Source of the DNA: Clostridia bacterium
GTDB lineage: Bacteria; Bacillota; Clostridia; Oscillospirales; Acutalibacteraceae
DNA length: 49,028 bases
Assembly (NCBI GenBank): GCA_017396175.1
Contig: JAFQMR010000032.1
Coordinates: 1 to 49,028, forward strand
Direction: 5' to 3'
Positions within the stretch are counted from its first letter, which is position 1, and the number at the start of each line of letters is the position of its first letter. Shown one piece after another: positions 4,344-49,028 of the stretch. A program made the translations under genes and the position numbers. The notes beneath the pieces were generated by a model, which saw only the letters and a program-made list of their open reading frames with translations, did no database searches and was not told the DNA's origin.

Positions 4344-6964
4344 TCGCTCGCCTCCTGTCGGTCATACATACGGCGGTACATTGCCTTGATCTCGTCGATC
4401 AGCGGGTAGCGCGGGTTGGCACCCGTACACTGGTCGTCAAAGGCCTCCCGCGCCATCTCGTCAAGGGAGGATTCGAACGCCTCCTCTGTGATGCCGTAGG
4501 CTTTCAGCGAGGGCTTGATACCGACCTTGTGCTTGAGCTTGCCGATCACCTCGATCAGCCGCTCGAGCCGCTCCTCGTCGCTGTCGCCGTGCAGGCCGAT
4601 CGCTTTGGCGATCTGTCCGTAGCGGGCGAGGGTATGCGGACATTCATACTGCGGGAAGGTGCCCATCCGCGTCGGTGCCGAGGAGGCGTTGAAGCGCATG
4701 ACCTCTTCGATCAGCAGGGCGTTTGCCACACCGTGGGGCAGGTGGTGATACGCGCCGAGCTTGTGCGCCATCGAATGGCATACGCCGAGGAACGCGTTGG
4801 CAAACGCCATCCCTGCCATCGTGGAGGCGTTCGCGAGCTTTTCGCGCGCCTGCGGATCGTTTGGACCGTCGTGATAACAGCGCGGAAGATAGGTGATAAT
4901 GCGTTCGATCGCCCCGAGAGCCAGCGCGTCGGTGAAATCGGTGCTCATCATCGAGCCGTATGCTTCGATGGCGTGAGTCAGCGCATCAATGCCCGAGGCG
5001 GCGGTGAGGGAAGGCGGCTGATTCATCATCAGATCGATGTCGATGATCGCCATATGCGGCATCAGCGCATAGTCCGCCAGCGGGTATTTTATACCGCTTT
5101 CCTCATCGGTGATCACGGCAAACGGCGTGACCTCCGAGCCTGTGCCCGAGGAGGTCGGCACGGCGACAAACCGTGCCTTTTGTCCCATGTCGGGGAAGCG
5201 GTAGACACGCTTGCGAATATCCATAAAGCGCATGGCCATATCGTGGAAATTCGTGTCGGGATGCTCGTACATCACCCACATCACCTTGGCGGCATCCATC
5301 GCCGAGCCGCCGCCCACCGCGAGGATGACATCGGGCTCGAACTGCCGCATGGCATCCGCACCGCGCTCGGCATGAGCCAGCGTCGGATCGGGATCGACGT
5401 CGGCGTACACCGTAAAGCGCAGGGACAGCTCGTGCAGACGGTCAAGCAGGGGTGTCAGCATCCCGCTCTGATACAGAAAGCGATCGGTGACCACAAAGAC
5501 GCTTTGCGCTTGCATTGCATCACGGAGCTCTGCCAGCGCGTGACGCAGACAGCCTTGCTTCATATAGATTTTCGGCGGGGTGCGGAACCACAGCATATTG
5601 TTTCTCCTCACGGCGACGGTTTTGATGTTCAGCAGATGCATCACGCCGACGTTATCCGACACGGAATTGCCGCCCCACGAGCCGCATCCGAGCGTCAGCG
5701 AGGGCGCAAGGCGGAAGTTGTACAGGTCGCCGACACCGCCCTGCGCGGCGGGGGTGTTGATCAGAATGCGACAGGTCTTCATCCGTTCTTCAAAGCGGGC
5801 GAGGCGGTCGGGAGCGCGATGCGGATCGATATAGAGTGCCGCCGTGTGCCCGTAGCCGCCGTCCTCGACGAGCCGTTCCGCCTTGTTGAGCGCATCGCCG
5901 AAATCGGAGGCGCGGTATAAGGCGAGCACGGGGGAAAGCTTTTCGTGCGCGAACGCCTCCTGCGGCAGAACGCTTTCCACCTCGCCGATCAGTACCTTTG
6001 TTTCCGACGGCACCGAGAAGCCCGCAAGCTGTGCAATATGCGGGGCGGTCTGACCGACCACCGCCGCGTTTAAGGAGCCGTTGATGATCATCAGTCGGCG
6101 GATCTGTTCGGTTTCCTCGGCGTTCAGAAGATACCCTCCGCGTGCCGCGAATTCCTCACGCACCTTGTCGTAGATGCCGTCCGCGGCGATCACCGCCTGC
6201 TCCGAGGCGCAGATCATCCCGTTGTCGAACACCTTGGAATGCAGTACCGAGCTGACGGCCGCTTCCACGTCGGCAGTCTCGTCGAATACGGCGGGGGTGT
6301 TGCCTGCGCCGACGCCGACGGCGGGCTTGCCGCTGGCATACGCCGCCTTGACCATCCCGGGACCGCCCGTGGCGAGAATAAGATCTGCCTCCCGCATTGC
6401 GGCATCGGTCAGTTGAAGGGACGGCTCGTCGATCCAGTCAAACAGCCCCTCGGGTGCTCCCGCTTCGACGGCGGCTTTCAAAACAAGGCGTGCCGCCTCA
6501 GCCGTACAGCGCTTGGCGCGCGGGTGCGGACAGAGTAGCATCGCGTTGCGCGTTTTGATCGCCAGAAGCAGTTTGAAGATCGCGGTGGAGGTGGGGTTCG
6601 TGGTCGGAATGACGGCGGTGATCACACCGATCGGGGCGGCGATCCTCCGAAAACCCGAAGCGGCATCCTCCTCGATCACCCCGCAGGTCTTAGTGTCCTT
6701 GTAGGCGTTGTATATATATTCGGAGGCAAAATGGTTTTTGATGACCTTGTCCTCGACGACACCCATGCCGGTTTCCTCTACGGCCGCTTCGGCGAGCGGA
6801 ATACGGGCGCGGTTGGCGGCGAGAGCGGCGGCGCGGAAAACAGCATCTACCTGCTCCTGCGTATAGGACGCGTAGCGCCGTGCCGCCTCCCGCAAGCGGG
6901 AAAAGGCCGCCTCCAGTTCTTCTTTTGAATCGATAACACGGCGCGAATACGTCGGCTCCGTCAC
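4340..6964 (-). CDS. adhE: bifunctional acetaldehyde-CoA / alcohol dehydrogenase
   Basis: 874 aa, with an N-terminal aldehyde dehydrogenase half fused to a C-terminal iron-type ADH half ('[10 protein letters not shown]', His-rich metal site '[16 protein letters not shown]'). Confidence 0.9.
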
Positions 6965-28887: not shown

Positions 28888-28930
28888 CTGTTTGCCCAAG
28901 TGTTCTTAAGGACACTTGGGCAGTTTTATT
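28888..28930 (+). terminator. intrinsic terminator after the GH3 gene
   Basis: Stem GCCCAAGTGT (28894-28903) / ACACTTGGGC (28912-28921) followed by AGTTTTATT. Confidence 0.7.
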
Positions 28931-28958
28931 CGCCTTACGGCGAGTGTTATTGCTACGC

Positions 28959-29095
28959 AGTGATATTTGAACTTCGTTCAAGTGATATTGCCTTCGGCAG
29001 TTTATGGCGAATAAAATATCACTGAAATCGTAAGATTTCAATACCACTTCCCCAAAGGGAAATATCACTCTGTGCGAAAAGCACAGAATATCACT
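28959..29095. repeat. cluster of five 9-mers, AGTGATATT (x2) and its reverse complement AATATCACT (x3)
   Basis: Exact copies at 28959-28967, 28981-28989 (forward) and 29015-29023, 29061-29069, 29087-29095 (inverted). Small hairpins lie between them: TGAAC-TTC-GTTCA, GAAATC-GTAA-GATTTC, CTGTGC-GAAAA-GCACAG. Confidence 0.9.
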
Positions 29096-43887: not shown

Positions 43888-45078
43888 ATGTTTGATTCAA
43901 AATACTATATTGAAAGAGATAAGGCGGTAATGCTCGAGACCTACGACCGTTACCCCGTGGTAATCGAAAAGGGAAGAGGAGCCACCGCTATCGACGTAAA
44001 CGGTAAAAAATACATCGACTTTGCGGCAGGCATTGCTGTAAACGCGCTCGGATATGCCGATAAAAACTACGTAAACGCCGTGATCAAGCAGGTAAAAAAG
44101 GTAGGTCATATCTGTAACCTTTACTATAACCCCACCAATATCGAGCTTGCCGAGAGAGTAATTGCGGCAACCGGTATGAAGAGAGTATTTTTTGCAAACT
44201 CGGGCGCCGAGGCAAACGAGGGCGCGACCAAAATTGCAAGAAAATACGCGGCGGATAAATACGGACCCCACAGAAACGTAATTCTCACTCTTAACAACTC
44301 CTTCCACGGCAGAACGATAACCACTCTTTCCGCAACGGGACAGGAGTCGTATCACAAGCATTTCCAGCCTCTTACGAGCGGCTTCGTATATCCCGCAGAG
44401 AATACCGTTGAGTCTATCGCCGAAACGATAAACGAAAACGTATGCGCAATAATGATAGAGCTTATTCAGGGCGAGGGCGGCGTAAATCTCCTCGATAACG
44501 ATCTCGTTATGGGAATTCAGAAGCTTTGCGACGAGCACGACCTCTTACTTATCGTCGACGAGGTGCAGACCGGCGTTCTTCGCACCGGTAAATTTCTTGC
44601 CTGCAACTATTTTGATATCCACCCCGATATAGTAACTCTCGCAAAGGGACTCGGCGGCGGAATGCCTATCGGTGCAGTTCTTGCAAATGAAAAATGCGAG
44701 CACGTTCTCTCCTACGGTCAGCACGGCTCAACCTTCGGCGGAAACCCGATAGTCTGCGCGGGCGCGATCGAGGTAATGAAGCGCACTACCGATCCTCAAA
44801 TGGAAAAGGATGTTTGTGAAAAGGGCGAATATATCCGCAACAAAATAAAGACCTTCAAAAACGTTAAAAACGTTCGCGGACTCGGTCTTTTCATCGCCTT
44901 TGACCTTATAAACGGCAACTCCAAGGAGGTCTCCCGCGAGATAGCCGAAAACGGCTGCCTCACCCTTACAGCAAAATCGTCTATGCGACTTTTGCCGCCC
45001 CTTATAATCTCTTATAAAGATATAGATAAGGGTCTTGAAATAATCAAAAAATCAGTTGAAGCAAGAGCGGAGAAATAA
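43888..45078 (+). CDS. argD: acetylornithine aminotransferase
   Basis: 396 aa, class-III aminotransferase, with 'DEVQTG' and the PLP-Lys context 'DIVTLAKGLGGG'. Confidence 0.88.
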   Translation: MFDSKYYIERDKAVMLETYDRYPVVIEKGRGATAIDVNGKKYIDFAAGIAVNALGYADKNYVNAVIKQVKKVGHICNLYYNPTNIELAERVIAATGMKRVFFANSGAEANEGATKIARKYAADKYGPHRNVILTLNNSFHGRTITTLSATGQESYHKHFQPLTSGFVYPAENTVESIAETINENVCAIMIELIQGEGGVNLLDNDLVMGIQKLCDEHDLLLIVDEVQTGVLRTGKFLACNYFDIHPDIVTLAKGLGGGMPIGAVLANEKCEHVLSYGQHGSTFGGNPIVCAGAIEVMKRTTDPQMEKDVCEKGEYIRNKIKTFKNVKNVRGLGLFIAFDLINGNSKEVSREIAENGCLTLTAKSSMRLLPPLIISYKDIDKGLEIIKKSVEARAEK

Positions 45079-45080
45079 AA

Positions 45081-45983
45081 ATGAAGCATTTACTTAAATT
45101 ACTCGACCTTTCCGAAAAGGAAATAATTGAAATACTTGACCTTGCCGATGAATTGAAGGCAGAAAACAAGAAGGGAATAACCCATCATCGCCTCGCAGGC
45201 AAAACGCTTGGACTTATATTTGAAAAATCCTCTACCAGAACGAGAGTATCCTTCGAGGTTGGAATGTATCAGCTCGGCGGATATCCGCTTTTCTTAAGCT
45301 CGCGTGACCTTCAGCTCGGCAGAGGCGAGTCTATTGCCGATACCGCACGCGTTCTTTCCCGTTACGTAGACGGAATTATGATAAGGACCTTCGAGCAGGA
45401 AAAGGTAGAGCAGCTTGCCGAATACGGCTCAATTCCGATAATAAACGGACTTACCGATTTCTGCCATCCCTGTCAGGTGCTTGCAGACCTTCAGACCATC
45501 CGTGAATATAAGGGCGGCTTTGCAGGAAAGAAGCTCGTATATATCGGTGACGGCAACAATATGGCAAACTCTCTCATCGTAGGCGGCCTTAAGGTCGGTA
45601 TGAGCGTAGCGGTAGCATGCCCAAAGGGCTACGAGCCCGATGCAAAGGTGCTTGAATTTGCAAAGGATAAGGATTTCCTTCTCACAGACGATATCTACGA
45701 AGCCGCAAAGGATGCAGACGCCATCTATACTGACGTATGGGCAAGTATGGGTCAGGAGGGCGAAGCAGAGGAACGCAAAAAGATATTCAAGAGCTATTGC
45801 GTAACTAGCGAGCTTATGAAGGTAGCAAAGCCCGACTGCATCGTGCTCCATTGCCTCCCCGCACATAAGGGCGAGGAGATAACCGAAGAGGTATTTGAGG
45901 CTCACGTAAACGAGATAATGGATGAAGCTGAAAACCGTCTCCATGCACAAAAGGCAGTTATGGTAAAGGTAATGGAGAAATAA
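45081..45983 (+). CDS. argF: ornithine carbamoyltransferase
   Basis: 300 aa with 'STRTR', 'HPCQ' and 'HCLP' motifs. Confidence 0.9.
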   Translation: MKHLLKLLDLSEKEIIEILDLADELKAENKKGITHHRLAGKTLGLIFEKSSTRTRVSFEVGMYQLGGYPLFLSSRDLQLGRGESIADTARVLSRYVDGIMIRTFEQEKVEQLAEYGSIPIINGLTDFCHPCQVLADLQTIREYKGGFAGKKLVYIGDGNNMANSLIVGGLKVGMSVAVACPKGYEPDAKVLEFAKDKDFLLTDDIYEAAKDADAIYTDVWASMGQEGEAEERKKIFKSYCVTSELMKVAKPDCIVLHCLPAHKGEEITEEVFEAHVNEIMDEAENRLHAQKAVMVKVMEK

Positions 45984-46019
45984 TTGCTCCGTTCCCCAAA
46001 AAATAAAAAACTTTTAAGA

Positions 46020-46057
46020 AAGACGTCCTTTTTGCTTGACAAAGGGACGTCTTTTTG
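46020..46057 (+). terminator. intrinsic terminator of the arg operon
   Basis: Stem AAGACGTCC (46020-46028) / GGACGTCTT (46045-46053) followed by TTTG. Confidence 0.65.
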
Positions 46058-46064
46058 TTAAAAT
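46036..46064 (+). promoter_or_regulatory. near-consensus sigma-A promoter (extended -10) reading into the tRNA-fragment array
   Basis: Consensus TTGACA (46036-46041) in the terminator loop, 17-nt spacer ending in TGT, then TAAAAT (46059-46064). Confidence 0.6.
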
Positions 46065-46113
46065 AAATAACGCTGAACAGAGTTAACACTCCCTTGGGAG
46101 TTTAACATATACT

Positions 46114-46254
46114 TGAGAGATATCGAAGTGGGGACGTTTGCGACCGCCGCCGGTGGCGGAAAAAGGGAGCAAAAAGGAGTGGCAGCGGTCGAAATTTTGC
46201 GAAGCGAACAGCGAGCAAAAAATTTCGCAAACCGCAACAGGACATAACGGGGCT
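46114..46254 (+). pseudogene. tRNA-Ser 5' fragment, unit A (split by a 110-nt insert, truncated)
   Basis: TGAGAGATATCGAAGTGG (46114-46131) matches nt 1-18 of the unit B copy, and ACATAACGGGGCT (46242-46254) matches nt 19-31 of the intact tRNA. No 3' half is present. Confidence 0.6.
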
Positions 46255-46312
46255 CCCCGTTCGATGAAAAATTGAATAGTCGTTATACTCCAAAACGGGG
46301 TTTAACATAGAT

Positions 46313-46352
46313 GGAGAGATATCGAAGTGGTCATAACGGGGCTGACTCGAAA
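46313..46352 (+). pseudogene. tRNA-Ser 5' fragment, unit B (nt 1-40, ends in the anticodon loop)
   Basis: GGAGAGATATCGAAGTGGTCATAACGGGGCTGACTCGAAA is identical to the intact tRNA at positions 8-40. No complementary acceptor 3' strand (TCTCTCC) follows. Confidence 0.8.
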
Positions 46353-46500
46353 GGTAGCCGAGCTTATCACTTGGTGAGTCGCGAAAGCTCTTGTTTTCTC
46401 GCAATATCTCGCAAATGCTTCATTTTTCTTGAATTTTGAGTGAACGCATTTCAACTTCGGCCTTGCAAAAGCCGTGCAAAATTCAAAACTAAGTTAATAC

Positions 46501-46540
46501 GGAGACGTATCGAAGTGGTCATAACGGGGCTGACTCGAAA
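46501..46540 (+). pseudogene. tRNA-Ser 5' fragment, unit C (nt 1-40, ends in the anticodon loop)
   Basis: GGAGACGTATCGAAGTGGTCATAACGGGGCTGACTCGAAA is identical to the intact tRNA at positions 8-40. No CGTCTCC 3' strand follows. Confidence 0.8.
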
Positions 46541-46693
46541 TTCTCGTATTCAAGTGGTAACTGTCATTTCACAAAGCCTTTAACGGTGCGGGTTTGCAGA
46601 GTAACACGGCTTTGATTCCACTTTCTTATCTAATGCACTATCTAATATAAATTTAATATCGGTTAAAACTCTATTTTAGAGTTTGACATACAC

Positions 46694-46787
46694 GGAGGGT
46701 TATCGAAGTGGTCATAACGGGGCTGACTCGAAATCAGTTGTACGGCTTAATACCGTACCAAGGGTTCGAATCCCTTACCCTCCGCCA
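46694..46787 (+). tRNA. tRNA-Ser (anticodon CGA), type II with a long variable arm and encoded CCA
   Basis: Hand-folded. Acceptor GGAGGGT/ACCCTCC, anticodon stem GCTGA/TCAGT with loop CTCGAAA, variable-arm stem GTACGG/CCGTAC, T arm AAGGG-TTCGAAT-CCCTT, discriminator G, then CCA. Confidence 0.85.
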
Positions 46788-46790
46788 AGG

Positions 46791-46827
46791 ACAATCGCAA
46801 TCTTAGGATTGCGATTGTTTTCTTTTT
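46791..46827. terminator. bidirectional terminator after tRNA-Ser
   Basis: 11-bp stem ACAATCGCAAT (46791-46801) / ATTGCGATTGT (46808-46818) followed by TTTCTTTTT. The stop codon of the minus-strand HTH gene lies in the loop. Confidence 0.7.
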
Positions 46828-47063
46828 ATCTCCCTTGCATCGTAGCTTGATATATAATACTGTCTGCCAACCTTTGTGGCAGGAAGTTTTCCTTTTTTTA
46901 TATAGCTGTAAACCGTCTTTAAACACATATCAAGATATGCTGCGGTTTGTTCTACCGTCCAAGCCTTGTGGTTTTTAATTTTGCCACCGTAATATCCGGG
47001 GATTTTAATATCCTTTTTCAATTCGTGCAAGCCTCCGTTTCTCTCTGCGTTTTTCGTTTTCAA
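46803..47063 (-). CDS. excisionase-family helix-turn-helix protein
   Basis: 'WTVEQTAAYLDMCLKTVYSYIKKGKLPATKVGRQYYISSYD' matches the excisionase/MerR-type HTH pattern. The listed start is a TTG; an internal TTG at 47021 behind GGAGG is an alternative. Confidence 0.6.
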   Translation of the reverse strand: MKTKNAERNGGLHELKKDIKIPGYYGGKIKNHKAWTVEQTAAYLDMCLKTVYSYIKKGKLPATKVGRQYYISSYDAREIKRKQSQS

Positions 47064-47637
47064 TTTCTCTTGAGCGTTTTGCCTTAAAGGTTTTTATAAG
47101 TGCTTTATATTTTTCACCTGTTGGGTTTGAAACCTTTTCAGGCGAGGATGCATAGATTATAAGTTCTTTTTTAGATATGTACTGCGTACAACCGATTTTA
47201 ATTGCCGTAAAACCGCCCTCACGCGCGATTTGATGTATCAGTTGGGGTCTACACCCTAACAGCCTTGAAACCTCCGACGTGGGCACAGCATCGGGCAGTT
47301 CTTGCCATTCAAATTTTAACCACTGCATAAACTCTTTACAGTTTTGTTTTGTGGGTTCAAGTAATACTCGCGGATGCCATTCGGTGCGATTTGAAAACAT
47401 ACCTACAAGCTCTGCAAGGAATCCCACCTCGTTTTCCATTCGCCATTTGAAGTGTTCGGCATCTTCTATAAGAACTTTGTATTTGTGAGTTGCGTGGCCT
47501 GTGTTTTCGTGTGGGATATAATTGTTATCCATCAGATATTTCATCTTGCGTGTTGAGATATGAAGATATTGCCGTAACTGACATCCGCTCATATATTCCT
47601 TTTCCATATTCTTCTCCATTAGTCCTTTGTTTTGCAA
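47005..47637 (-). CDS. DNA-binding protein with two HTH-like segments, element-encoded
   Basis: 210 aa with 'CQLRQYLHISTRKMKYLMDNNYIP' and 'TSEVSRLLGCRPQLIHQIAREGGFTAIKIGCTQYISKKEL', plus a basic C-terminal tail. The start is uncertain, with several in-frame ATGs at 47637-47592. Confidence 0.5.
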   Translation of the reverse strand: MQNKGLMEKNMEKEYMSGCQLRQYLHISTRKMKYLMDNNYIPHENTGHATHKYKVLIEDAEHFKWRMENEVGFLAELVGMFSNRTEWHPRVLLEPTKQNCKEFMQWLKFEWQELPDAVPTSEVSRLLGCRPQLIHQIAREGGFTAIKIGCTQYISKKELIIYASSPEKVSNPTGEKYKALIKTFKAKRSREIENEKRREKRRLARIEKGY

Positions 47638-48812
47638 AGCACATCGGTTATAACCGCCGCACTTGCTTTCTTACTTGCAGTATCGAGATGCCCATAAATA
47701 TTTGCTGTTGTCCCAATATCCGAGTGCCCAAGGAAGTTGGACACATTTATTAGCGGCACTTCCTTGCCGAGCAATATACTCGCAAATGTATGCCGTAGGT
47801 CGTGGAATCGTATGTGCCGTAAGCCGTATTTTTTTAGCAGGTCGCTGAAATGTGACGTTATATAGGACGGCTTTATAAGATTGCCGAGTTGGTCAACACA
47901 TACATAATCGTGATACTTTCGGTTGTAACTGCTTTTGAATAGTTTTCGGTATAATTCTTGCTTTTCTTTAACTTCAATCAACATTTCATACACGGGTTCG
48001 GGCAGAGGTAATGTGCGTCTGCTCGATTTATTTTTCATCTGTTCTTCGGGGATGGTTACGGTTTTACCGTTTTCTGTGTACTCAACTATTTTAGTATCAA
48101 GCAGTACTGACCTTTCTTCCCAGTTTATTCTTGACCATCTTACACCCAAGGCTTCACTGCGCCTGAGTCCCATACCACCGCCGAGCATTATGGCAGGATA
48201 GATTATATCATCCTTGGTGAGTTCCAACAGCGTGAGCAGTTCTTCCTCGGTGTAGTTGTCATTATTAAATTTGTTTTTCTTCGGTCTGTCGATTCGGTCG
48301 AAGGGATTTGCATCTATCATCTCATCCTTAAAGGCTATGTGGAATGCACGGCGGAGAAGAGCGTGATAATGGATAACCGTGTTTGCAACCACGCCTTCTT
48401 TAAACAAATAATCATAGAAGGCTTGGATATCTTTAGGCTTTAGATTCTCAACCGTTAGGTTTTTATGCCTTGTAAAGTACCGTTTGATTTTGCCCTCTAT
48501 CAGCATTTCATAGCTGTTGTATGTATTCATTTGAAGGTTAGGCTTTACTCTTTTCAGAAATATGCATAGGTAATCATACACGGGAATATTTGCATCGGGA
48601 CGTCCACCAAGGGCGAGTCCTCTTCCATATTCCTTTTCATATTTGTCCACCACCTCTCTATAAGCCTTGTTGACCTTTGCCTTGGGTGTGCCTTCGGGTA
48701 AGCCGAGGGTACGCCACACGGGTCTGGTTTTGCCGTTAATTTTCACTTGTATAACGGCATACAGTCTTCCGTTCTTAGCTTGAACGCTTGCCGAGAATTT
48801 GCCCGTTGTCAT
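47619..48812 (-). CDS. int: tyrosine-type site-specific integrase
   Basis: The ATG at 48812 has an AAGGAA RBS. It has an N-terminal arm-binding-type domain, the catalytic residues in 'GLRRSEALGVRW' and 'HDLRHTFASILL', and the Tyr in 'GHSDIGTTANIYGHL'. Confidence 0.88.
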   Translation of the reverse strand: MTTGKFSASVQAKNGRLYAVIQVKINGKTRPVWRTLGLPEGTPKAKVNKAYREVVDKYEKEYGRGLALGGRPDANIPVYDYLCIFLKRVKPNLQMNTYNSYEMLIEGKIKRYFTRHKNLTVENLKPKDIQAFYDYLFKEGVVANTVIHYHALLRRAFHIAFKDEMIDANPFDRIDRPKKNKFNNDNYTEEELLTLLELTKDDIIYPAIMLGGGMGLRRSEALGVRWSRINWEERSVLLDTKIVEYTENGKTVTIPEEQMKNKSSRRTLPLPEPVYEMLIEVKEKQELYRKLFKSSYNRKYHDYVCVDQLGNLIKPSYITSHFSDLLKKYGLRHIRFHDLRHTFASILLGKEVPLINVSNFLGHSDIGTTANIYGHLDTASKKASAAVITDVLCKTKD

Positions 48813-49028
48813 AAATTTCAATTCCTTTCTGTAATCTATATTGGTTTTTGCCAACAGGAACAATACCATAAGCATCTTCCGAAGTCCAGACTATTTTGGG
48901 AGTCTTGTGGCAAGAATTCTTAACGGGGTTCGAACTAAGCTCTCTTGCTCTCATAAAATTTATTAAATCTGATTTCGCAATTCGTTTTTCTCTGCCGACC
49001 TTAATTGACGGTATCGTTCCGTTGTTCA
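48775..49028 (-). CDS. partial (5'-truncated by the window edge) excisionase-like HTH protein
   Basis: An open frame from 49026 down to the TAA at 48777-48775 translates to '..NNGTIPSIKVGREKRIAKSDLINFMRARELSS..'. It overlaps the int start by 38 nt and is not in the ORF track because its start lies outside the window. Confidence 0.5.
   Translation of the reverse strand, partial: NNGTIPSIKVGREKRIAKSDLINFMRARELSSNPVKNSCHKTPKIVWTSEDAYGIVPVGKNQYRLQKGIEIYDNGQILGKRSS

Follow-up and report, generated by a model that had tools for sequence, protein, structure and literature searches.

The run of tRNA-Ser(CGA) 5′ halves that precedes the intact tRNA-Ser gene in this Clostridia bacterium is very probably a stack of attL junctions, produced by nested serial site-specific integration. 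The window analyzed here is the whole stretch of 49,028 nucleotides (contig JAFQMR010000032.1, assembly GCA_017396175.1). Junctions, empty sites and the reconstitution of a split tRNA were all observed. Serial integration at the anticodon loop had been among the explanations of the original prediction, and its core idea is upheld by the comparison of the window with a second genome of the same species (L001) and by the element ends visible in L011/L012; three of its details had to be given up.

Layout of the array

The 33-nt tRNA-Ser(CGA) 5′ segment TATCGAAGTGGTCATAACGGGGCTGACTCGAAA occurs exactly three times in the window, at 46320, 46508 and 46701, and 0 of 100 shuffled sequences gave a match to it with up to three mismatches permitted. 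Counted with the acceptor strand, the copies are 40 nt long and start 188 and 193 nt apart, their acceptor strands being GGAGAGA (copy A), GGAGACG (copy B) and GGAGGGT (tRNA C). Only the last copy is called as a tRNA, by ARAGORN (anticodon CGA) and by Rfam. Truncated copies A and B both stop at CTCGAAA, and the sequences directly 3′ of this motif differ. A degraded fourth copy (copy 0), which starts 199 nt upstream of copy A, consists of GAGAGATATCGAAGTGG at 46115-46131 and GGACATAACGGGGCT at 46240-46254, split by an insertion. Thus, the identical 5′ segments with differing acceptor strands and regular spacing, the truncation of both copies at one nucleotide and the degraded fourth copy were all recovered as the original prediction had described them. 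The same holds for its two pairs of short direct repeats, TCTCGCAA at 46397 and 46407 and TATCTAAT at 46627 and 46639, and for the upstream promoter, which matches at 11 of 12 positions and has the TG, with the only terminator-like site of the array region 3′ of the intact tRNA (Table 1). The conserved upstream motif was recovered in part: the TTTAACATA-type motif lies at 46097-46109, 46297-46309 and 46678-46690, but its version ahead of copy B is weaker. Spacers A-B and B-C have no mutual similarity.

Table 1. Features of the array and of the part of element C inside the window.
Positions	Strand	Feature	Basis or remark
46019..46054	+	argF terminator hairpin; the -35 hexamer of the tRNA promoter falls within it	Inverted repeat I2, 14-nt arms, 93% complementary, then T-run
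46036..46064	+	Predicted chromosomal tRNA-Ser promoter, TTGACA-17-TAAAAT with TG	11/12 positions; equivalent in L156
46113..46131	+	Copy 0 part 1, acceptor strand to D-loop, ...GAGAGATATCGAAGTGG	Probable 5′ remnant of the original tRNA-Ser
46132..46242	+	111-nt structured multi-copy mini-element (MITE-like) in the D-loop of copy 0	
46243..46254	+	Copy 0 part 2, CATAACGGGGCT, D-loop to start of anticodon stem, truncated	
46255..46312	+	58-nt junction and conserved leader of tRNA A (hairpin and TTTAACATA), putative oldest layer	
46313..46352	+	Copy A, former tRNA-Ser 5′ half, GGAGAGA; probable attL junction of element B	Core CTCGAAA 46346-46352
46353..46500	+	Spacer A-B, putative left (P′) arm of element B and leader of tRNA B	CTCGCAA pair 46397, 46407
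46501..46540	+	Copy B, tRNA-Ser 5′ half of element B, GGAGACG; attL junction of element C	Core 46534-46540
46541..46693	+	Spacer B-C, left (P′) arm of element C and leader of tRNA C	TATCTAAT pair 46627, 46639
46694..46787	+	Intact tRNA-Ser(CGA) of element C, GGAGGGT/ACCCTCC	ARAGORN; Rfam tRNA, 51.8 bits
46788..46821	+	tRNA terminator	15-pair stem and T-run
46803..47021	-	72-aa excisionase-family HTH protein	Pfam HTH_17, 2e-12; NCBIfam TIGR01764 'excise', 34.2 bits (cut-off 28.8)
47005..47607	-	200-aa protein of element C	Weak HTH_17 match
47619..48812	-	Tyrosine integrase of element C, 397 aa, reads toward the tRNA	Pfam Phage_integrase 1e-25, SAM_5, SAM_3
48775..49028	-	Incomplete gene of element C, next in order, for a 120-aa HTH_17 protein; runs off the end of the window	Gene order in L007, L009 and L011

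The insertion that splits copy 0 is a 111-nt mini-element whose homologues occupy this site in 17 or more other species and in which 11 of 32 predicted pairs show compensatory changes; a CCCCGTTCGAT...leader string follows it on the 3′ side in 11 of 18 aligned examples. One replicon of Vescimonas fastidiosa (NZ_AP023416.1) carries it at 24-25 places, in REP-like hairpin loops, and both copies inspected there occupy the loop of a CCGATGTGG...CATCGG hairpin, a target that the D-loop GAAGTGG/TCAT of tRNA-Ser resembles (few sites inspected). With many dispersed copies and a fixed insertion target, again from few inspected sites, the insert appears to qualify as a MITE. Small MITE-like elements with hairpin loops or REP sequences as their target include the IS200/IS605-derived PATEs and the REP-targeting IS110/IS1111 elements. 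Like them, the insert is small (~110 nt), non-coding and multi-copy, has hairpins with compensatory changes, appears to use a fixed short target, GTGG/..CAT, in hairpin loops, and shows no obvious target duplication.

Occupied sites, empty sites and element C

Positions 44001-46541 of the window are 100% identical to L001, which has identical flanking DNA, and the two sequences are unrelated 3′ of that point. In L001, copy B is an intact tRNA (GGAGACG...CGTCTCC), a state also found in L151 and L152 (GGAGACG/CGTCTCC). The window departs from L001 by one insertion alone, the left end of a mobilizable element, which begins right after CTCGAAA and brings a 153-nt arm, a second complete tRNA-Ser(CGA) and genes for an excisionase-like protein and a tyrosine integrase. 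Positions 46565-49028, inside this insertion, are 98.4% identical to L011, and in L011/L012 both ends of this element, element C, are visible with CTCGAAA on each side. There, 17,233 nt separate the tRNA 5′ half from the orphan 3′ half, and when joined in silico the two give a perfect tRNA-Ser(CGA) according to ARAGORN. The two ends share CTCGAAA only (TTCTCGAAA at most); the 5′ half stands alone at attL, as does the 3′ half at attR. From L001 and the 98.4%-identical copy in L011/L012 we infer the nesting in the present genome, where the right end of element C and a predicted mirrored series of 3′ halves lie outside the window. For the innermost layer, the element bodies are nested to the right of the intact tRNA and have not been lost.

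The comparison of the argF-tRNA-Ser region in relatives, a check named in the original prediction, showed a plain junction. A related species (L156, argF 86% identical) has argF, a promoter in the equivalent position, one intact tRNA-Ser(CGA) and core genes, and its tRNA lies where the window has copy 0 part 1.

The 3′ halves of tRNA C and tRNA B differ too (ACCCTCC vs CGTCTCC), as does the variable arm, so a whole tRNA gene was imported. Element B in L001 and in L133 likewise contains a tRNA-Ser(CGA), and in L133, another host, an element-B-like unit begins at the same point after CTCGAAA. The elements had been thought to supply only a promoter and a 5′ half; this no longer holds, as a complete tRNA-Ser(CGA) is brought, with both halves and a matching acceptor stem. 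The spacers had been taken for decayed att arms with arm-type sites: the arm-type repeats are there, but the arms are intact left (P′) arms of ~150 nt.

The copy of element C in L011/L012 is 17.2 kb long. It encodes a relaxase (PF03432), MobC/NikA, AAA_25, AbiTii, a methyltransferase and a ResIII protein. Gene calls gave neither capsid nor tail genes, and type IV secretion genes are absent from these 17.2 kb. With int, xis, relaxase and MobC and no conjugation pore, the gene content fits that expected of an integrative and mobilizable element (IME). Element C is not a temperate phage, though its mode of action is like that of a phage system. The predicted domains point to integration by an element-encoded tyrosine integrase. 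Six of the nine TCTAAT/ATTAGA copies in the 17.2-kb element fall within -185..+107 of the core, so that these sites concentrate around the reconstructed attP. The left arm of element C was found with the mobilizable element in two further genomic contexts, and in L007 and L009 the unit of arm, 5′ half, arm and tRNA C stands behind two different host promoters, with different acceptor strands and flanking genes. Loci with homologues of the methyltransferase proved to be other elements that carry the same restriction-modification-like cassette and have no tRNA in them.

A look-up with a 259-aa cargo protein of L001 returned a single-layer element-B-like insertion (L133) and a contig that begins within a tRNA 3′ end (L134); the predicted point at which, in this species, element C ends and the B 3′ half begins was not among the matches. 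When IMG/VR was scanned with the array and the intact tRNA, no free circular attP form was found in this viral collection and host flanks alone were returned. A 20-mer scan of JGI metagenomes for the attR junction of element C gave five chance matches, all in unrelated sequence, and a search of a plasmid collection with the tRNA gave nothing useful. BLAST of the array against phage genomes, which had been proposed for tracing the mobile-element source of the spacers, returned tRNA-Ser genes only. The three faecal scaffolds named "Bacteriophage sp." (H1, H2, H6) proved to be ordinary contigs of bacteria; two of them hold one tRNA-Ser each, and the third breaks off within a 5′ half. The junction of layer A is atypical, with a break at about tRNA position 31 and an arm of merely 58 nt, and no empty site was found for this layer (copy 0 to tRNA A).

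Recurrence in gut Clostridia and competing readings

Such arrays are present in at least 119 species genomes of gut Clostridia. Among the loci listed, which extend to at most 8 kb and stop short of any attR, nearly all that are uncut end the array with the intact tRNA, and an integrase homologue was found 3′ of the tRNA in 26 of the 34 with at least 3 kb downstream, on the opposite strand in all but one case and mostly within ~1.5 kb. The loop CTCGAAA is kept in all non-terminal copies of the listed loci (152/152), the search pattern itself having forced it for the first copy of every locus; the sequence after it is varied in these copies and is TCAG in most terminal ones. The spacers of the listed loci sort into 26 families; of the families inspected, the majority show a direct-repeat pair of 6-8 nt peculiar to the family. 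Spacer A-B belongs to family 2 (11 members among the loci listed, 148 nt each), which is found together with the L001-type integrase clade; overall, the last-spacer family follows the integrase clade. The arm from core to tRNA measures 131-162 nt, and the tRNA beyond it is complete and self-matching. Judged from these sequences, the spacers appear to be attL arms with integrase-specific arm-type repeats, and the short repeats would bind the arm domain of the integrase. Also, in L011 two tRNA-Pro(TGG) halves end behind the anticodon loop and are followed by an intact tRNA-Pro and an integrase, which suggests that the same design operates at tRNA-Pro(TGG) too.

The copies could be read as pure scars, that is, as traces of decayed elements which each gave a promoter and a 5′ half in a reversed-orientation tRNA integration, the spacers being eroded remnants of whole elements once situated between the halves. 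The displaced pieces are indeed 5′ halves, not the usual 3′ fragments, and copy 0 is truly decayed. However, the L001-window comparison and the L011 junctions contradict this reading: a whole tRNA gene was imported, as the 3′ half of tRNA C shows, and the element body is located on the right side, where the matching 3′ half borders it. The spacers, moreover, are conserved across species, fall into tight length classes, as in family 2, and carry paired repeats. We regard the pure-scar reading as very improbable.

A functional or co-opted repeat-spacer RNA, whose tRNA halves would decoy anticodon nucleases or tRNA-binding factors or compete for them, is to be judged just as improbable. The halves are probably transcribed, since the array has a near-consensus promoter ahead of it and is free of terminator-like sites within, and transcription of the array as one RNA from this promoter is plausible. 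The halves are also sequence-perfect, and element C carries cargo of defence type (AbiTii, methyltransferase, ResIII helicase). Their perfection is nevertheless explained by the recent truncation of functional tRNAs. Copy number varies between strains exactly by element insertions, L001, L151 and L152 having one unit fewer; the related species L156 has a plain junction; the spacers are mutually unrelated inside the array and follow the integrase clade; and an Rfam family match is absent. By the refuting test that the original prediction had set for it, the decoy RNA falls: L156 has the plain junction, and L001 and the window differ by exactly one element insertion. The array does not appear to be conserved as a unit independent of mobile-element genes.

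Local tandem duplication of a promoter-plus-tRNA unit, by slippage or unequal crossing-over and with later loss of the 3′ halves, would account for the regular spacing and for the similar leader motif upstream of each copy, but the unlike spacers contradict it, both truncations fall at exactly one nucleotide and the acceptor strands differ as those of separate complete genes would, which leaves it a negligible probability. The suggestion of a large tRNA-adjacent structured ncRNA of the ROOL/GOLLD kind is equally negligible: that the region folds better than shuffled sequences (z = -3.3) says nothing here, because the tRNA, the terminator and the structured mini-element all lie within it; Rfam 15 run on 45950-46900 gave no match to such a family even at E ≤ 1, the intact tRNA alone passing the gathering score and the other matches being a below-threshold antisense one over the tRNA 3′ half and a weak FtrB one (E 0.23), and the region is a mosaic of separately mobile pieces.

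Proposed integration cycle and related systems

To account for the stack of attL junctions, we propose a family of integrative elements of gut Clostridia with a heterobivalent-type tyrosine integrase, for which the 7-nt anticodon loop CTCGAAA of tRNA-Ser(CGA) would be the crossover site. These elements do not restore the target tRNA by fusion; each carries a complete tRNA-Ser(CGA) with its leader, ~130-160 nt inside its left end, with the P′ arm on one side and the integrase gene on the other. A single integration would then give, from left to right, the resident 5′ half, the P′ arm, the new intact tRNA, xis/int, the cargo, CTCGAAA and the resident 3′ half. The newly delivered tRNA would be a perfect attB on which the next element lands, and each new landing would leave one more 5′ half and arm upstream and shift the earlier element body downstream. 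The carried tRNA would make up for the destroyed one; the upstream promoter probably drives read-through over the whole array, and in this way the host promoter would express the last tRNA of the stack. The constant period of ~190 nt would result from the 40-nt tRNA half plus a fixed arm length. The regular period and the perfect 33 nt would thus reflect shared element architecture and recent events, not selection on an RNA array.

In the present array, copy 0 would be the chromosomal gene, old, decayed and struck by the 111-nt mini-element, copy A the tRNA of an earlier layer and copy B the tRNA of element B. tRNA C is that of the newest arrival, a mobilizable element with relaxase, MobC and defence-type cargo. 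The body of element C would end ...CACAATTCTCGAAA, joined to the B 3′ half TCAGTTTGCGGGCAACCGCACGTGAGTTCGAATCTCACCGTCTCCGCCA. Farther right, the body of element B would follow, with the 259-aa gene or its equivalent and a 394-aa integrase, and then CTCGAAA with a 3′ half whose acceptor, TCTCTCC, matches copy A. The circular attP would read ...CACAATTCTCGAAATTCTCGTAT..., that is, the right end, CTCGAAA and TTCTCGTATTCAAG.

More tentatively, and at somewhat less than even chances, the arrays mark a large guild of "tRNA-replacing" islands, undescribed to date, among gut Clostridia. Every such island may destroy a tRNA-Ser(CGA) or tRNA-Pro and supply a substitute read from the host tRNA promoter; the substitute may be a portable landing pad, on which islands stack like nested dolls and travel as composites, and perhaps the islands contend with one another to control an indispensable tRNA. 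Co-option of the perfect, jointly transcribed 5′ halves, for example as anticodon-nuclease decoys, is much less likely.

If the proposed cycle is right, a carried tRNA that becomes the next attB would let defence-gene islands accumulate at one locus and move as composites, which is undescribed in the sections of PMC10865867 on which we draw. Known from actinobacteriophages, tRNA-dependent integration would thereby be extended to mobilizable islands, which are very common among the Firmicutes of gut and rumen (at least 119 species). In genomes of Clostridia, rows of tRNA 5′ halves would be neither pseudogene noise nor new RNAs but precise markers of nested mobile elements, whose order records the history of arrival. 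The integrases, with their 7-nt core and family-specific arm repeats, are candidate tools for site-specific integration in gut anaerobes that are hard to engineer.

The sublocation classes of tRNA-gene integration, which Williams reportedly set out in 2002, include crossover in the anticodon loop. As in classical tRNA islands (Islander database, PMC4383910), the crossover here would fall in a 7-nt anticodon loop flanked by a symmetric stem, with the core as a direct repeat at both ends; the integrase gene adjoins the intact tRNA, and repeated use of the site sets elements side by side. Classical islands carry a tRNA 3′ part fused at the core, and their displaced 3′ pieces are separated by whole islands, whereas here the whole gene is carried, neither half of the target keeps its partner, and the 5′ halves pile up ~190 nt apart. 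A tRNA 3′ part abutting the core, with a restored hybrid attL, does not appear in these elements. Accretion of ICEs, IMEs and CIMEs in Firmicutes (PMC5704250, PMC5357655; detection tool PMC9585547) similarly involves integration next to or inside another element and gives composites able to move together, and in L007 and L009 the left arm of the outer element accompanies the inner one as it moves. Such accretion uses an att site regenerated at the element boundary, whereas the landing pad here would be a functional tRNA, carried as cargo at the edge.

The closest known mechanism is tRNA-dependent lysogeny, described for the actinobacteriophages Fionnbharth, the LeBron group and Gaia in a paper which, in the sections drawn on here, also names prophage Lj965 of Lactobacillus johnsonii (Guerrero-Bustamante and Hatfull, mBio 2024, PMC10865867). 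Both systems have a tyrosine integrase and an attB inside a tRNA gene, putative arm-type sites that flank the core, and an element-carried tRNA with the same anticodon, which could replace the destroyed one. The common core is very short in both, 8-17 bp in the phages and the 7-nt loop here, and for this reason neither junction rebuilds the tRNA. By its sequence, element C belongs with them on two counts, an attB in a tRNA gene with a non-rebuilding core and a tRNA-Ser(CGA) carried inside the element. The carriers in gut Clostridia differ in being non-phage islands, element C having a relaxase and MobC, and in holding the replacement tRNA directly beside attP, behind the host tRNA promoter. 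The proposed reuse of the carried tRNA as attB, with the nested stacks of 5′ halves that result, also sets these islands apart from the phage system as those sections of PMC10865867 describe it.

The tRNA-Ser array and its neighbours in the window

The 49-kb window contains three occurrences of the 33-mer TATCGAAGTGGTCATAACGGGGCTGACTCGAAA (46320, 46508 and 46701), whereas 100 shuffles contained none. When the seven acceptor bases are included, the differences between the copies are confined to acceptor positions 5-7. Only the third copy (tRNA C) was called by ARAGORN as a complete gene, a tRNA-Ser(CGA) scoring 51.8 bits in Rfam; the two truncated copies (A and B) both end with the final anticodon-loop base. 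The threefold repeat truncated at this loop, as described in the original prediction, was therefore borne out, and its degraded fourth copy (copy 0), short direct repeats, TTTAACATA-like upstream motif, promoter-like site and single terminator after the tRNA were all recovered in place. The -35 hexamer of the promoter-like site falls within the argF terminator hairpin.

The core arginine operon (argJ, argB, argD, argF) lies upstream of the array, and three genes follow the intact tRNA, the window ending 216 nt past the integrase gene. A GTTAxACTCC-loop-GGAGTTTRACATA leader is conserved upstream of tRNA-Ser(CGA) genes, chromosomal and element-borne alike, including the host genes in the comparison contig L007. 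Covariation is seen in its hairpin stems, and a -10 element (TATACT/TAAAAC) or a processing signal may lie within it. Elsewhere in the window, a Gut-1 RNA (Rfam RF01706) match at 28921-28993 (+) scored 51.3 bits against a gathering score of 50.

Features of the array region and occurrences of the structured unit (L040, L061 and L157 are comparison contigs)
Feature	Position	Strand	Details
argF terminator hairpin	46019-46054		
Promoter-like site	46036-64		11/12 positions
Leader sites	46083-46109; 46283-46309; 46664-46690		
Broken fourth copy (copy 0)	46115-46131 + 46240-46254		
~111-nt structured unit	window 46132-46242; L040 313-426; L061 6445-6558, 6737-6847; L157 1498-1613, 20008-20122		
Truncated copy A	start 46313		
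Truncated copy B	start 46501		
tRNA C, tRNA-Ser(CGA)	46694-46787		complete gene
72-aa excisionase-family protein	downstream of intact tRNA	opposite	Pfam HTH_17; NCBIfam TIGR01764
200-aa protein	downstream of intact tRNA	opposite	
397-aa tyrosine integrase	downstream of intact tRNA	opposite	

Crossover at the anticodon loop and import of a complete tRNA

Same-species contigs were retrieved with the exact argF protein as query. One of them (L002) was the same as the window. Another, L001 (GCA_017411345.1), was 100% identical to it over 44001-46541 and then unrelated, the last common base lying one base beyond the CTCGAAA of copy B. In L001, copy B continues into a full tRNA-Ser(CGA), with CGTCTCC as the 3' acceptor strand matching GGAGACG; other cargo and another integrase, 39% identical to that of the window, come after it. 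Thus, the window corresponds to L001 with extra DNA inserted into tRNA B at its anticodon loop. This insertion opens with a 153-nt spacer and holds a whole new tRNA, then xis and int. As tRNA C has its own acceptor (GGAGGGT/ACCCTCC) and a variable arm unlike that of tRNA B, both tRNA halves were imported. Serial integration at the anticodon loop, as originally proposed, was therefore right as to the crossover point, but the elements bring a whole tRNA and not just a 5' half. Two contigs with 99% identical argF (L151, L152) were in the same state as L001. In a related species (L156, argF 86% identical), argF is followed by a terminator, a promoter, a single tRNA-Ser(CGA), a terminator and core genes, and no integrase was found at this locus, which represents the plain ancestral arrangement.

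With the 200-aa protein as query, the newest arrival, element C, also turned up in two further genomic settings, L007/L008 and L009, and these contigs were extended through a methyltransferase look-up (L011, L012). Its right end reads ...GCCACAATTCTCGAAA, directly followed by TCAGTTAGGGAGCAATCCCCCGCGAGTTCGAATCTCGCCGTCTCCGCCA and a terminator. TCAGTTAGGGAGCAATCCCCCGCGAGTTCGAATCTCGCCGTCTCCGCCA represents an isolated 3' half of a tRNA-Ser. Its acceptor strand fits the GGAGACG of the truncated 5' half that borders the element on the left; the two halves are 17,233 nt apart and, joined in silico, give a perfect 89-nt tRNA-Ser(CGA). The sole repeat of the element ends is the 7-nt loop, so the target is split without being rebuilt and the substitute comes from the element. 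Over the portion of element C that the window covers, identity to L011 is 98.4%. Its genes (xis, 200-aa protein, int, HTH, relaxase PF03432, MobC/NikA, AAA_25, DUF6809, AbiTii, N6_N4 methyltransferase, 452-aa protein, ResIII-like protein, AAA_14 and HTH_3) make it an integrative mobilizable element with defence-type cargo. The methyltransferase and ResIII-like cassette, with AbiTii (L011 5752-12786), recurs at 93-95% protein identity in L158-L163, quite different integrase-bearing elements with Fic, GmrSD, Abi_alpha, SLFN or kinase genes, and appears to be exchanged among islands.

The DNA common to L007 and L009 begins one unit before element C, in the order host promoter, host acceptor (GGAGACG or GGAGAGG) and 5' half, 142-nt arm X', GGAGACG 5' half, arm Y and tRNA C. 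Read from this left end, element C therefore lies within the tRNA of an outer element. L011 and L012 are 99.9% identical across 20.7 kb, up to the first half, and the composite stands behind two different host tRNA promoters. In another host (L133), an element-B-like unit (spacer family 2, tRNA and 259-aa gene) starts directly after CTCGAAA. In the host 5' half there (675-725), 17 extra nt resembling a hairpin (tgaggttttacctcgga) are inserted around the anticodon stem, ahead of TGACTCGAAA. Just past the orphan Ser 3' half of L011 lies a tRNA-Pro(TGG) array (2407-2910, - strand), in which two 5' halves, both severed right after the anticodon loop TTTGGGA, stand ahead of the intact gene with a period of ~209 nt and spacers 84-88% alike. 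Two small genes and a 479-aa integrase come next; the stacking design is thus not peculiar to tRNA-Ser. In L141 (IMG/VR UViG_3300029763_000192, ~4960-5160), the upstream truncated half has the loop CTTGAAA, i.e., anticodon TGA as in tRNA-Ser(UGA), and the intact gene after it is a tRNA-Ser(CGA). Here an element may have entered a non-cognate serine tRNA, one for which the carried tRNA would be no replacement.

Arrays, spacers and the interrupted copy in other genomes

A survey of one genome per species, with a pattern of two halves 140-170 nt apart, gave at least 119 genomes with arrays. Among the matches listed, the majority were Oscillospirales, Acutalibacteraceae or Christensenellales from human, ruminant and other guts, with Sinanaerobacter, Anaerotignum and one Selenomonadaceae genome also present. 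These matches held two copies in 97 loci, three in 21 and four in 2, and the final copy was an intact tRNA in every uncut locus. An integrase homologue followed the tRNA in 26 of the 34 listed loci with at least 3 kb downstream, on the opposite strand in all but one and mostly within ~1.5 kb. Also among the matches listed, all 152 non-terminal copies ended in CTCGAAA (the pattern imposed this ending on one copy per locus), followed by diverse sequence, whereas TCAG followed in most terminal copies.

The 152 spacers of the matches listed form 26 families, each narrow in length, and the family of the last spacer correlates with the clade of the downstream integrase. In most inspected families, two direct repeats of 6-8 nt, peculiar to the family, lie at a distance of ~85-110 nt from the core (e.g., TATCTAAT, CTCGCAA, GTCTAAT, TTCTAC, TCTAACG, TCTCCCG, TTCCCAAA). 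The 17.2 kb of element C contain nine TCTAAT/ATTAGA hexamers, of which six fall within -185 to +107 of the core in the reconstructed attP. Lambda-like integrases have arm-type sites laid out as such paired repeats near the core. We infer that the repeats are arm-type sites bound by the integrase, and the spacers therefore consist of P' arms plus a ~45-nt tRNA leader, rather than the decayed att arms first suggested, of which the arms with their paired repeats stand. An arm of fixed length added to the 40-nt tRNA half gives the ~190-nt period. The identity of the 33 bases is explained by recent truncation of functional tRNAs, and the integrases' requirement for the anticodon stem-loop may also contribute. 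An AAACCC...GGGTTT(T)-type hairpin was seen ~+35 to +65 from the core in many otherwise unrelated families (e.g., window 46574-46598), and again in element C's P arm (reverse strand of L011). It might act as a weak terminator or as a site for an accessory protein.

Copy 0 is the 5' part of the chromosomal tRNA. Homologues of its ~110-nt interruption occupy the corresponding site, flanked by GAAG(T/C)GG and CATAACGGGGC, in at least 17 other species, and an alignment of 18 units showed compensatory changes at 11 of 32 predicted pairs. Halves of this type are perfect at positions 8-19, against a variable acceptor, and in 11 of the 18 aligned examples they break at about position 31, followed by a shared CCCCGTTCGAT...leader string. 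One Vescimonas fastidiosa replicon holds 24-25 occurrences of the unit away from tRNAs; in the two inspected, it sits in a REP-like hairpin loop (CCGATGTGG-unit-YCATCGG), with an uninterrupted copy of this hairpin close by. The unit is probably a small structured non-autonomous mobile element, site-specific and MITE-like, which we read as homing to GTGG|..CAT loops, the tRNA-Ser D-loop among them.

Mechanism and comparison with known systems

The array consists of stacked attL junctions, either live or recent. The alternative of a functional repeat-spacer RNA is rejected, the related species having a plain argF-tRNA-Ser junction. Each crossover at the anticodon loop orphans both target halves, and the complete cognate tRNA carried ~150 nt inside attL then becomes the target of the next arrival. 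Arms differ from family to family and carry paired repeats. The integrase would take the anticodon stem arms as core sites, with its N-terminal domain on the paired repeats, and the 72-aa protein would steer excision. After integration, transcription from the host tRNA promoter would continue past the dead half and the arm and reach the new tRNA, which would make up for the lost one; no terminator-like site was found between promoter and new tRNA in the window array. Such read-through would account for the placement of the tRNA at the very edge of the element. These observations bear on mobile-element biology and on the annotation of genomes, and the elements may be a source of integration tools.

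In classical tRNA islands the gene is restored by a fused 3' segment, a defining feature that the array elements lack. The mechanism matches tRNA-dependent lysogeny (PMC10865867), in which a tyrosine integrase uses an attB inside a tRNA with an 8-17-bp core, the gene is not rebuilt, and the phage-borne cognate tRNA is needed for lysogen survival. The array elements share four features of that system as set out there; the temperate-phage feature is absent from element C because it is a mobilizable island. Neither stacking via the carried tRNA nor the 5'-half arrays to which it leads were found described in the consulted sections of that article or in open-access literature text.
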